From: Tricharina praecox
Lineage: Eukaryota
Direction: 5' to 3'
Assembly: GCF_024521635.1 (NCBI RefSeq)
Contig: NW_026250403.1
Coordinates: 2,232,001-2,296,000 of the forward strand
Length of the DNA: 64,000 nt
Positions within the stretch are counted from its first letter, which is position 1. Each line of letters starts with the position of its first letter. The notes beneath the pieces are model-generated. The model ran no database searches, had not been told where the DNA came from, and saw only the letters and a program-made list of their open reading frames with translations. The translations under genes and the position numbers were made by a program. Below, piece after piece: positions 11,533 through 15,552 of the stretch.

Positions 11533-12503
11533 ACGGTCTTTTTCATGCGGTTGTCTGTTTTGCGGTTGTCTGTTTTGCGGTTTCTTCGCTTATTGGAGTC
11601 GAGTTCAATTTTGGTTTATGGATGTCATTTCCGTTCTTTCCTTCATGATGCGGGGTTTAGTTTGGCGGGGGTTCATTGTAATTGGAAGCTTTCTTTTGGT
11701 TTACGATCACGCAAATATTTACCTTCGCATGAGTTTTAGTTGAAAAAGTACTTGTTTGTGTGGAATACGTAAGGGTGAAGCAGTTTGCGATTGACTTGAG
11801 ATAACTGGTTGACGCGATGAGGCGAATGCAGGTCTATGAGTATCCGAGGGTGGTGCAGCGGAGCGGAACTTTCGGTGTCCGGAGGTTTAGAACTGGTGAT
11901 CTCTGATGAAGGTATGTATGTGCTCGTGTGTGGAAACTCGGCAGTCATCATAGTTCGAATGAGACAGTAGTGACGGCGGATGCCGTCCTTTCGTTTACTC
12001 CGCGCGGATTTGTCGGGTTGTGACATCATCCGTCCACCCTTGCCAGGGCCGCCTGCCTGCTCCCTCGGGCCTTGCGTCATTCCCAATACCCTTGGATGTC
12101 CGCGCCTTCTCGATATCCACAACGACGATTGATGTGCGACACCTTTGTCTATCTCCACGCATCAGGCTATCGTCTGGACCTGATTCTGATATCCATTCAA
12201 AAACCTCTGCTCGTCCTCTTGTCTACTTACTACCACTTCCTTCCATATTCCAATCCGGTTCCCACACGATTTCCATCCCATACAACCACCCTGCCGCAAC
12301 GTCTCGCCACTTCACCGAATCGGCAAGCAAACAATAAAAACATCCCTACCTAACCCTACTTACCTACTTTCCCCGGATGTACGTATATGAACCTACCCGG
12401 TGCCGCTGTGCGATCTTCATCGTCTCGTCAAGCTCATCGTCGTCCTTCTCCTACAGTGCATCACAAACCTCAACGAAAATACATTAACGCATCACACCTC
12501 AAG

Positions 12504-13961
12504 ATGCATCGCACGTATTCGATGCGTCAGTCGCGTGCACCGACACAGTCGCAGATTGAGCGTCCGCCACCACCCACGAGCTCCACCAAAGTCGGGCGAT
12601 TGTTCGGCGGGGGAAGCTTCGGTTTGTTTGCCTGTCCTTTCCTTGTGCTTACTTCTTTTACCGATTGGTTTTCCTTTGTTCCTCTCCCCCCTCCAGCGAA
12701 TGCTTCTTGCTTGTCACGGAGGGGAGATGAATATGCCTGTCAAATTGGCTAACTCGGTTTGGCTGATGGAGGTAATGCAGGACACAACTTGCGCAAGTCG
12801 GTGGCCGGTGCATAGTGAGTTCTCATAGTCGTTTCCATCTCGGCCACCCGTGCTACTTGCTAACCATGGTTGTAGCGGTCCCGACCTCGCTCGGAAACTC
12901 TCGCAGCTCGTCAAGATGGAGAAGAACGTGATGCGATCGATGGAACTTGTGGGTCGCGAGCGCCGCGAGGTGGCCCGCCAGCTCTCCATCTGGGGCGAGG
13001 AGTGCGACGAGGACGTCTCCGATATTACGGATAAACTGGGAGTTCTTATTTTCGAGATCGGTGAGCTCGAGGACCAGTTCATCGATCGGTACGATCAGTA
13101 CAGAGTCACCATCAAGAGCATAAGGAATATCGAGGCGAGTGTACAACCGAGCCGTGATCGTGAGTATATCCAATACAGTGAGGCTTGAGAGGGTGAGACT
13201 AATGAGGGGAACAGGCAAGCAGAAGATTACCGACCAGATTGCCCAGCTCAAATACAAAGATCCCAACTCGCCGAAGATTGTGGTGCTGGAGCAGGAGCTT
13301 GTGCGTGCTGAGGCCGAGTCGTTGGTTGCCGAGGCCCAGCTATCGAACATCACCCGCGAGAAGATCAAGGCGGCGTTTACGTACCAGTTTGATGCCATGC
13401 GCGAGCATGCCGAGAAAGTTGCCATGATTGCAGGCTATGGAAAGCACTTGCTGGAGCTTATTGACGACACGCCTGTTACTCCCGGTGAGACGAGACCGGC
13501 TTACGACGGATACGAGGATAGCAAGAGGTACTTATATCGATTTGGTGATTCCTGGTATATTACTGACTATCCGTAGTATTATCCAAGATTGCGAGGACTC
13601 ACTTACTAACTGGGTCGAATCCCGAGCCATGGTGCGCTCCCGCCTATCTCAGCGCGGTGTCCGTCCCCGCCGAACCGGTGGCCGTGCCTCCCGCGTCCGC
13701 CAACCCATCAATCTCTCGGACCAAGACCGTCCCCTCCACGACGATGGCTGGGTTCCGGCCGATGAACACGAGCGAAAAGTGACTGGCCGTAACAGCCTAG
13801 TCCTTAACCGCGAGGATGACGACGAATACGAAGACATCACTGACGACGAGCGGCACGCACCGCGCGCCCGCCGCAGTCTGGATGATGAGCGTCACTACAA
13901 GAACGCTGCAGCCGACTCCCGCGGTCATCGCGAAGCCGATAACCTGGTTGCCGATGAATGA
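12504..13961 (+). CDS. Eisosome BAR-domain protein, Pil1/Lsp1 family (short form ending at the first TGA)
   Basis: Exons 12504-12621, 12781-12814, 12876-13159, 13215-13527, 13577-13961. MHRTYSMRQSRAPT, GPDLARKLSQLVKMEKN and LEQELVRAEAESLVAEAQLSNITR are Pil1/Lsp1 signatures. Confidence 0.92.
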
Positions 13962-14426
13962 CAGACGTCGAACGCCGGAGGCGGCATTAGCGGTGGCGAG
14001 GGCCGCAACGAAAGGGGGTATGTTATTGGAACTGGCATCAGTTCTGGTGGATTTAGAACTAGGGATTCGGGCGTGGGGGGGCTATCTAATATTGCGACTA
14101 CTGGAACTGGATATCATGATAACGATTCGACGACACCACGGAGTTTTGCTAATGACCGGAAGATGATGGAGGACAAGCGCGAGGAGTTTGAGAGGACCGA
14201 GGGAGCGGCGGCGAGGGAGAGTAGCATGGAGCGGGAGAGGGTACGTGATACCAGCGGAGCCGGAATGTTGAGAACTACTATGCGTGGAAGCCCCGCGTAC
14301 AACGAGCAGAAGGCGGAAATGGAGGGTGTTGATGATACTCGTGAGAGGGATAGCTTGACCGCGGATCATGAGCACAAGAACTTCTTGGACAAGGCGAAAG
14401 ATAAGATTATCGGTGTTGGGGTTTGA
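13962..14426 (+). CDS. Candidate in-frame C-terminal extension (154 aa) of the Pil1-family protein
   Basis: Same frame as the Pil1 last exon, with no stop from 13962 to TGA 14424-14426. Gly-rich then charged hydrophilic peptide ending EHKNFLDKAKDKIIGVGV. Confidence 0.55.
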   Translation, partial: QTSNAGGGISGGEGRNERGYVIGTGISSGGFRTRDSGVGGLSNIATTGTGYHDNDSTTPRSFANDRKMMEDKREEFERTEGAAARESSMERERVRDTSGAGMLRTTMRGSPAYNEQKAEMEGVDDTRERDSLTADHEHKNFLDKAKDKIIGVGV

Positions 14427-15552
14427 TTGATCGATTTGTTCTCTCTGTTGTCTGTCTGTCGTGTTTGTCGTTCTGTTCTGCTCTGCTCGTTCTTCGAAAT
14501 GTTTGTGATTGTACTGGACGTTGTGATGATTGTATTGTTATGTGTACTGTACGCTCGATTGTGTTATAATAGTTATGCTGTAATGAATGGTTCACTCAAC
14601 CGGGCTTTCTCCACTGTGAATACTGTCTCGTACAAGTGGATGTCACTGTCGGTACGATACGTCACTGGCCACCGGAATCGGCAGGCTTCGGCTTGAAATC
14701 ACCCCGGGACGGTAGTGGCCACGGCCAAAACAGCAAGCTTCGGGACAGTCTCACCACGGCCTCGTCGCTGGTTTCGCACAAGCCGCAGAGCTAACCGGCA
14801 AGGACTCGTCTTCTCCGGTCAGGATGGATACATACAAAACAACGCCCCTGTATATATCCAATTATACATCTCGTCATGATGTAAGTCAGTATTGAACGGT
14901 AACTTGTAAGTGCTAAGAGGGGCTGAAGCCACTACATACTCTAACTAAGCCTTGTTCACATCCACCCTGCTAGGTACATGTCGTACGTACTTCTTACTAA
15001 CATACATGTCTATGGATGTAGAATAGAGTAACCCTCCCGCACCATGTCCGCACTCTACATACTCTATCATCCCTGACCCACCGCCACGCGTTAGTTAGTT
15101 GGATACTTACGCAGCTGAACTCTGGAATTTCCCCATTCGAGGGATTTACGGACATTAACTAGAGTATGTAATTAACTAGTGGTTGCTGCAGGTGGTGGTG
15201 GGCCTGGTCAGTGGTGGTGGTGGCACTGGTGGGGCTGAGGTGGTGAAACGTCAGTGGAATTGAAGGGTGTCGTCCCGTCAAACCTGGGATTTCAGCATCG
15301 CCCGTCTCAACGCCTCCCTCCATCCCTTGCCCAGACAGCGTGCCCGCCCGGCACGGACTGAGATGCGGGACGGGACGGAGACTTGTTTGCGCTCTGGTGG
15401 GACGTCGAAGGGCCTAGGGAAAGATGAGAGGAGGGGAGGGGAGGGGACGAGGACTCGCATGGTAAGCCGTGGCTGATCCCCCAAGTAATCGCCCGTAGAG
15501 TAGCGGGGAAAAGCCCCCCCCCAAAAAAAAGCGAAGAAGTGTGTGGTGCACT

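Follow-up and report, generated by a model that had tools for sequence, protein, structure and literature searches.

A conserved open reading frame behind the UGA stop codon of a Pezizales Pil1 gene points to a long-tailed form of the eisosome scaffold

The Pil1 gene and its messenger RNA

A stretch of 64,000 nucleotides (nt) from Tricharina praecox (contig NW_026250403.1, positions 2,232,001 to 2,296,000; hereafter the window, with its first letter as position 1) carries on its forward strand, at 12504-13961, a gene of the Pil1/Lsp1 family (PF13805), directly followed in the same frame by a second open reading frame (ORF) that is hidden behind the stop codon. Eisosomes are a well-studied domain of the plasma membrane, and Pil1 is their main building block. 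The gene codes for a BAR-domain protein in five exons (12504-12621, 12772-12814, 12876-13159, 13215-13527 and 13577-13958), the GT..AG joints of which are present in RNA contigs of the runs X4, X5 and X7; translation of the exons as joined in RNA gives 380 codons with the terminal stop as the only one. Matches to the Pfam profile are found in exon 3 (E 4e-47, 161.4 bits) and exon 4 (E 5e-52, 177.5 bits; cut-off 27), which jointly span positions 52-249 of the 265-position profile. Proteins that bear the name Pil1 or Lsp1 in Geopyxis, Ascodesmis, Pyronema, Rhizina and Tuber share 59-90% identity with the last exon, and the closest match of this exon, P0012, belongs to a 90%-identity cluster that includes proteins of Wilcoxina mikolae and Trichophaea hybrida. 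The gene thus combines a domain score above the curated cut-off with orthology of its tail to annotated fungal proteins, in agreement with the family assignment made in a preliminary description of the locus, and is the principal eisosome gene of the Pil1 type in a fungus of the Pezizales (Pyronemataceae-like).

The RNA evidence consists of assembled contigs from four runs (X4-X7) of unspecified tissue, and such contigs drop rare variants and isoforms. The spliced messenger RNA (mRNA) is approximately 1.9 kb long (1908 nt counted from 12300), and its abundant form ends at about 14590-14600, where one contig each of X4 (14590) and X5 (14600) comes to an end. The stop codon at 13959-13961 is crossed colinearly by contigs of three of the four runs, belonging to three studies (X4 13688-14267, X5 13867-14600, X6 13764-14008); the pieces of X7 among those listed do not span it (13872 and 13983). 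For X4, contig depth stands at 2944 over exons 3-5, 3037 in the contig that crosses the stop, 2803 at 14299-14590 and 10.6 past approximately 14600, with a depth of zero over intron 2 that marks X4 as clean RNA of an isolate. Given the colinear contigs over the stop and the position of the mRNA end, the extension is an integral part of the abundant Pil1 mRNA, and the early polyadenylation (before about 14000) that the preliminary description had considered as a possible objection is not what these transcripts display. The true 3' untranslated region (UTR), which is T-rich, lies at 14427-14600 on the forward strand.

The stop codon and its context

The last exon ends in GAT GAA TGA (13953-13961) and is followed by CAG ACG TCG AAC. 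At the DNA level this region was compared between the window and two related loci, L001 and L002, which are the two confirmed loci from 443 pattern matches of one metagenome scan. TGA is kept in all three, and so is its context GAA TGA CAG ACG (13956-13967, forward strand), in which -1 and -2 are both A, +4 is C and +4 to +6 read CAG. The 12 bases GAATGACAGACG that span the stop are identical in the three loci and form the longest invariant run of the 240-nt alignment. Adenines at -1 and -2 before a stop codon favour readthrough.

Protein comparisons place the end of Pil1 at the same position. The best 11 of the 13 matches of a protein search with the last exon, the two weakest being left out, all terminate at a matching acidic C-terminus (-LVADE, -LVADD, -LVAAED, -LVTED and similar), and in the two related loci the Pil1 tail before the TGA ends ...LVADE or ...LVAEE. 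None of the five listed letter differences in RNA touches 13959-13961. As RNA contigs from three studies contain no other letter, both related loci have TGA, and the orthologues end there, the TGA is genuine, being neither an assembly error nor a private allele; this answers the concern voiced in the preliminary description that it could be a sequencing error or specific to one strain.

In the available text of a paper on mammalian readthrough, UGA followed by C is singled out as the context for UGA readthrough, and the hexamer CARNBA is given as a stimulator of readthrough in yeast (PMC4132726). The UGA with its following C and the CAG at +4 to +6 of the Pil1 gene match these published contexts in part: the hexamer departs from CARNBA at its last base, and the sequence does not correspond to CUAG, UGA CUA being the strongest known fungal and animal readthrough motif according to the available text of another study (PMC4207609).

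Recoding of the UGA as selenocysteine (Sec) was considered as a candidate and rejected, as there is no Rfam match to a selenocysteine insertion sequence (SECIS) in 13700-14800. In this interval Rfam gives no matches of any kind at E-values of up to 1, and no SECIS-like element was found. The Ascomycota are not known to possess the Sec machinery.

A coding extension in the Pil1 frame

The extension ORF occupies 13962-14423 on the forward strand and comprises 154 codons without an in-frame ATG before codon 68; its translation has homologues at 42-68% identity. It is closed by a second TGA at 14424-14426, the counterpart of which is TGA in L001 and TAA in L002, and the sequence turns T-rich behind this second stop, so that the boundaries of the ORF are those given in the preliminary description. 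The 462 nt of the extension contain no stop in frame 0 but 3 and 17 in the remaining frames, and across the loci the control frames hold 3-5 and 14-17 stops. Frame 0 remains open in 1 of 20000 mononucleotide shuffles for the window and in 1-2 of 20000 per locus over the three loci. The open frame exceeds chance.

The two related loci share the entire arrangement. In L001 the Pil1 last-exon tail and TGA are followed by Q-T and by 149 open codons in the same frame, 63% identical to those of the window, and in L002 by Q-T and a same-frame ORF of 144 codons with 42% identity, each then closed by its second stop. The orthologous extensions are therefore intact, contrary to the breakage by frameshifts or stops that the preliminary description had allowed for, and the differences in length (154, 149 and 144 codons) are all in frame. 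Pairwise ratios of nonsynonymous to synonymous substitution rates (dN/dS) within the extension are 0.31-0.47. The corresponding ratio of uncorrected proportions (pN/pS) is 0.53-0.64, with at most 1 of 2000 codon bootstraps reaching 1, and lies at 0.64-1.35 in the shifted frames; since one control frame is as low as the real one, the substitution ratio alone is only moderate evidence. Synonymous sites are near saturation relative to L002 (dS about 1.4 for the extension, >4 for the Pil1 tail), and in this sequence comparison the maintenance of an open frame despite such divergence, together with length changes that are in frame only and peptide motifs shared by seven lineages, is the stronger evidence for coding.

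The extension is also tied to the frame in which it follows Pil1. It is open from the stop codon onward in all three loci, and its first in-frame Met is found at residue 68, 57 and 42, respectively, whereas the VIGTG and RDSGV motifs already begin at residue 19-21. As conserved motifs precede the first in-frame Met in each of the three loci, the conserved part cannot be the product of initiation at an AUG within the extension. Taken together, these observations make it almost certain that the extension is genuinely coding and linked to the reading frame of Pil1. Within the reach of sequence and RNA contigs, the proposal of the preliminary description that a coding extension for a longer-tailed isoform lies behind the Pil1 stop is upheld, with stop, frame and peptide conserved in both of the related loci.

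Three conserved motifs stand out in an alignment of seven lineages. The N-terminal pair VIGTG ... R.RDSGV (14022-14075), which precedes the first in-frame Met, contains the invariant residues R32, D35 and S36. The most conserved motif, TMR.SP.Y..QKA (14277-14315), has invariant T106, M107, R108, P111, Y113, Q116 and K117. The C-terminal basic motif F/I-L-x-K-A-K-D-K-I (14382-14414) has invariant A145 and K146, and is modelled as a helix at low confidence. All three lie on the forward strand, and T58, P59, E90 and G122 are likewise invariant. G, R, E, T, S and D are abundant in the extension, hydrophobic residues make up 19% of it, and its net charge is -4. No Pfam family is matched by the extension (P0001), the last exon read through into it (P0002), or the related proteins P0005 and P0009; a profile search of the PDB with the extension yields a single match with an E-value of 0.9, and the best score in the ESM Atlas is 0.83, which is under the level of 0.9 taken as a lead. 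An AlphaFold2 model of the extension has a mean predicted local distance difference test (pLDDT) score of 50.4, with low-confidence helices at residues 63-83, 111-121 and 141-150, the last at a pLDDT of about 50-59. The model and the searches suggest that the tail is probably disordered, with short conserved motifs.

Past the second TGA there is another open run of 89 codons in the same frame (14427-14696), which reaches beyond the mRNA end at about 14600. Being T-rich and not alignable with L002, it is taken as a chance occurrence.

Relatives of the tail

A phmmer search with the extension against 1.84 billion representative proteins recovered seven matches at E-values of 0.001 or below (best 1.9e-22). 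Five of these are short ORF calls of 93-140 amino acids (aa) with 44-68% identity, and a word-index search yielded two further near relatives. Peptide homologues with 43-68% identity are thereby present in at least four further lineages (P0005, P0006, P0007 and P0011). Of the short calls, P0008 corresponds to the L002 ORF and P0003 to the L001 ORF, each truncated at an internal Met, and P0010 begins where the window reads GTG; such calls begin wherever the gene caller found a start, and hence carry no information on the true start. The 1078-aa tandem-repeat protein P0004 matches by way of its 16 repeats and was set aside as uninformative.

The Pil1 domain is absent from all seven representative phmmer matches, and no annotated member of the Pil1 family that was retrieved has the extension. 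A search with the extension for longer proteins in which the two are fused gave none among 2081 candidates, a null result that is weak evidence as the same search also missed P0009. In one relative the intron-less Pil1 protein P0012 and the extension ORF P0011 are each encoded on a single Logan contig of 1879 nt, a length close to that of the 1908-nt spliced mRNA, which fits one transcript contig with the same arrangement.

P0009, another of the seven phmmer matches, is a Gly/Thr/Ser-rich protein of 896 aa from a Logan contig of 16991 nt, and has only its C-terminal module in common with the extension. Its end, ARESSMER...MRTTMRGSPEY.EQKA...KKGIFERAADKM, contains the core and basic C-terminal motifs, with 62% identity over 47 residues. 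The same protein also has several R-x-Y-T-I-G-D/E-G repeats reminiscent of the G-Y-V-I-G-T-G of the extension.

Decoding of the extension

On the evidence of sequence comparison, selected readthrough of the conserved UGA, yielding a long Pil1 isoform, is the best-supported route to the tail, and we hold it to have somewhat better than an even chance of being correct. Among the features expected of a readthrough gene, the stop codon is conserved, the downstream frame is open in relatives, and the extension resides on the same mRNA; a coding pattern of substitution is also present, if only to a moderate degree. Of the three routes put forward in the preliminary description, readthrough fits best; the conserved context is AA-UGA-CAG-ACG. 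Most ribosomes would terminate at the UGA to give the 380-aa Pil1, and a minority would decode it by means of a near-cognate transfer RNA (tRNA) and continue for 154 codons to give a protein of about 535 aa. This long form would consist of the BAR-domain scaffold and a tail that is Gly/Ser/Thr- and charge-rich, probably disordered, and provided with the VIGTG, RDSGV and TMR.SP.Y..QKA motifs and the basic KAKDKI end. We infer that decoding is by readthrough rather than by another route, and the long isoform might co-assemble with normal Pil1 in eisosomes, with the tail displayed on the lattice as a docking or regulatory segment.

Several points weigh against readthrough of a selected UGA. The case is built from sequence comparison and RNA contigs, all of the RNA evidence being in the form of contigs that are able to hide rare spliced or edited forms, and at the DNA level it draws on three loci. 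Constraint is much weaker in the extension than in the Pil1 tail upstream of the stop (dN/dS 0.31-0.47 versus 0.03-0.07), and in the closest pair one control frame has a pN/pS of 0.64, as low as that of the real frame. The context is neither UGA CUA nor a perfect CARNBA, its last base being G in place of A. There is also no supported stimulatory RNA structure at the stop in the alifold consensus and local folds of the three loci: in the consensus the stop region base-pairs with the codons of VIGTG, all of these pairs being invariant with a covariation term of +1.45, and the local folds, which differ in shape among the loci, have non-significant z-scores of -1.19, +0.59 and -1.93. In the window alone the UGA is placed inside the loop, 9 nt in size, of a predicted hairpin that is conserved in neither L001 nor L002.

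The main remaining rival is separate translation of the downstream ORF, through reinitiation, a non-AUG start at the conserved ACG, or a minor internal transcript, which would result in a separate hydrophilic protein, about 150 aa long and co-expressed with Pil1. We regard this as unlikely. The second codon behind the stop is a conserved ACG in each of the three loci, and gene callers record the family as small stand-alone ORFs, P0005 and P0007 starting with M shortly upstream of VIGTG; furthermore, the same C-terminal module closes the unrelated P0009, so that the module need not be tied to Pil1. However, the M starts of the database ORFs are choices of gene callers, the ACG is in a weak context with C at -3, and scanning ribosomes would have to pass an ORF of 1.1 kb before reaching it. 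The depth of X4 is uniform over coding sequence and extension, and a separate transcript from near Met 14163, as contemplated in the preliminary description, cannot account for the conserved sequence upstream of that Met. Separate translation leaves unexplained why the ORF shares the Pil1 frame and is open from the stop itself in each of the three loci. At the other end of the scale is the view that the extension is an untranslated element of the UTR or the relic of a formerly longer Pil1, open by chance or through constraint at the RNA level. The weak constraint relative to the coding sequence, the lack of Pfam, PDB or Rfam matches, and the disordered model with its pLDDT of 50 would be in keeping with this view, which we nevertheless consider extremely improbable: the frame is open in the three loci though hardly any shuffles stay open, the control frames contain stops, the lengths differ by whole codons, and there are peptide-level homologues in other lineages.

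The two other routes suggested in the preliminary description would also produce a longer tail from the Pil1 mRNA, and fit the data poorly. In the one, the stop is spliced out in frame in a minor alternative isoform, the C-terminus of which is thereby exchanged or lengthened, with the conserved CAG after the TGA as part of the acceptor. TGACAG is indeed conserved, the AG at 13963-13964 is a possible phase-0 acceptor, and a rare isoform would be dropped by contigs. However, the only joints in all four runs are those of the five ordinary introns; the proposed intron 13779-13964, with its joint 13778/13965, is seen in none of them, and both of its ends (13778/13779 and 13964/13965) are crossed colinearly by single contigs (X4 13688-14267 and X6 13764-14008). 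Its donor GTGACT at 13779 corresponds to ATGACC in L001, where the GT is lost, and to GTTACC in L002, and the five phase-0 GTs common to the three loci are Val codons that would make poor donors (GTCGAA, GTCCGT, GTCCGC, GTTCCG and GTTGCC). Such splicing is accordingly improbable. Marginally less probable still is stop-loss editing of adenosine to inosine (A-to-I), which would convert UGA to UGG in sexual development and confine the long form to fruiting bodies. Stop-loss editing is common in fungi (PMC11156358, available text), and the UGA occupies the predicted hairpin loop mentioned above, albeit in the window alone, the hairpin being missing from both related loci. According to the same source, fungal editing strongly prefers U at -1 of the edited A, and hence UAG; here G precedes the A in all three loci, and TGA is kept instead of TAG, which disfavours stop-loss editing. 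Individual editing sites are moreover reported to be rarely conserved between species (PMC5381528, available text). A>G is not seen at 13961 in any of the four runs, a weak point as these are contigs of unspecified tissue. Readthrough thus remains the route that we prefer.

Comparison with known systems

Readthrough extensions of the kind described by Stiebler et al. 2014 (PMC4207609) and Loughran et al. 2014 (PMC4132726) resemble the present case, in so far as the available text of these papers describes them, in that a UGA with a following C and the in-frame coding ORF behind it are both conserved and one mRNA gives rise to two C-termini. The former comprise fungal and animal proteins in which readthrough of UGA-CUA adds a peroxisomal signal (PMC4207609), and the latter the mammalian class of OPRL1, OPRK1, MAPK10 and AQP4 (PMC4132726). 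Unlike these, the Pil1 gene has CAG ACG as its 3' context instead of CUA(G), and unlike the short targeting signals its extension is of about 150 codons, contains several motifs, and lacks a terminal tripeptide of the type-1 peroxisomal targeting signal (PTS1) kind. A second group of readthrough contexts, UAG/UGA-CARYYA of plant viruses and CARNBA of yeast (PMC4132726, available text), shares with Pil1 the CAG directly 3' of the stop, and CAGACG fits five of the six CARNBA positions; it differs in that the Pil1 hexamer ends in G and not A and belongs to a cellular gene of a fungus and not to a virus. Fungal stop-loss editing, reported from Fusarium, Neurospora, Sordaria and the Pezizales, including Pyronema (PMC11156358, PMC5381528; available text), would likewise provide a filamentous ascomycete with a C-terminally extended isoform from a single gene. 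Its known sites are UAG with U at -1, whereas Pil1 has a conserved UGA with G before the A.

With respect to the Pil1/Lsp1 (PilA/PilB) core proteins (PF13805), the sequence before the stop represents a complete family member, the annotated Pezizales orthologues of which end at the same place; the extension is absent from the annotated members retrieved. Full-text searches, judged from their listings and with subscription papers and supplementary tables outside their reach, found no paper tying Pil1 or eisosomes to readthrough. Placed among the known systems, the Pil1 case would be a conserved readthrough extension that is notable for its length, its host protein and its conservation across a fungal order.

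If this is correct, a recoded Pil1 isoform whose conserved tail has 150 residues would represent a hitherto unrecognised eisosome component in an order that includes truffles and ectomycorrhizal species, and would be among the few long, motif-bearing readthrough extensions of fungi, the documented cases found being ones that add short peroxisomal signals. Standard annotation files the extension as 3'UTR, and proteomics databases for these fungi would consequently miss it. A more speculative proposition, which we put forward only tentatively, is that across the Pezizales the eisosome scaffold exists in two forms that are produced from one mRNA via regulated UGA readthrough, and that the tail of the minor long form, with its S-P site and basic helical end, serves on the furrow lattice as a tunable arm for docking or phospho-regulation. 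As the same module ends the unrelated P0009, recoding would in this scenario share a domain between genes.

Additional features of the transcript

The 5'UTR of the Pil1 mRNA contains an intron of 78 nt (12379-12456, forward strand), the GT..AG joint of which (12378/12457) is present in three of the four RNA runs (X5, X7 and X4). Intron 2 has two candidate acceptors 9 nt apart (12772-12781); in X4, X5 and X7 the contigs are joined at 12772, with the addition of the residues G-N-A. These are missing from the transcript-derived P0012 of the relative, and a comparable insert, G-N-T, is present in P0018, the orthologue from Pyronema.

In X4 the summed contig depth rises to 8878 at 14214-14300, compared with about 3000 on either side, and the contigs listed are interrupted between 14267 and 14299, at the most conserved motif, TMRGSP. 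This rise and interruption could reflect a variant or a paralogous transcript with a shared motif, such as that of a P0009-like gene. Further upstream, X4 contigs at 13284 and 13318 have loose ends of 255 nt that resemble a diverged copy of the same Pil1 region, and probably represent a second Pil1/Lsp1 paralogue expressed in that isolate.

Strain variants include an in-frame deletion of 3 nt in the acidic stretch at 13818 (a metatranscriptome contig of X6) and a deletion of 3 nt in the 5'UTR at 12497 (a metatranscriptome contig of X7). The C>T changes within the extension are synonymous at 14082 (Leu) and at 14115 replace His by Tyr, the residue that P0010 likewise has at this position.

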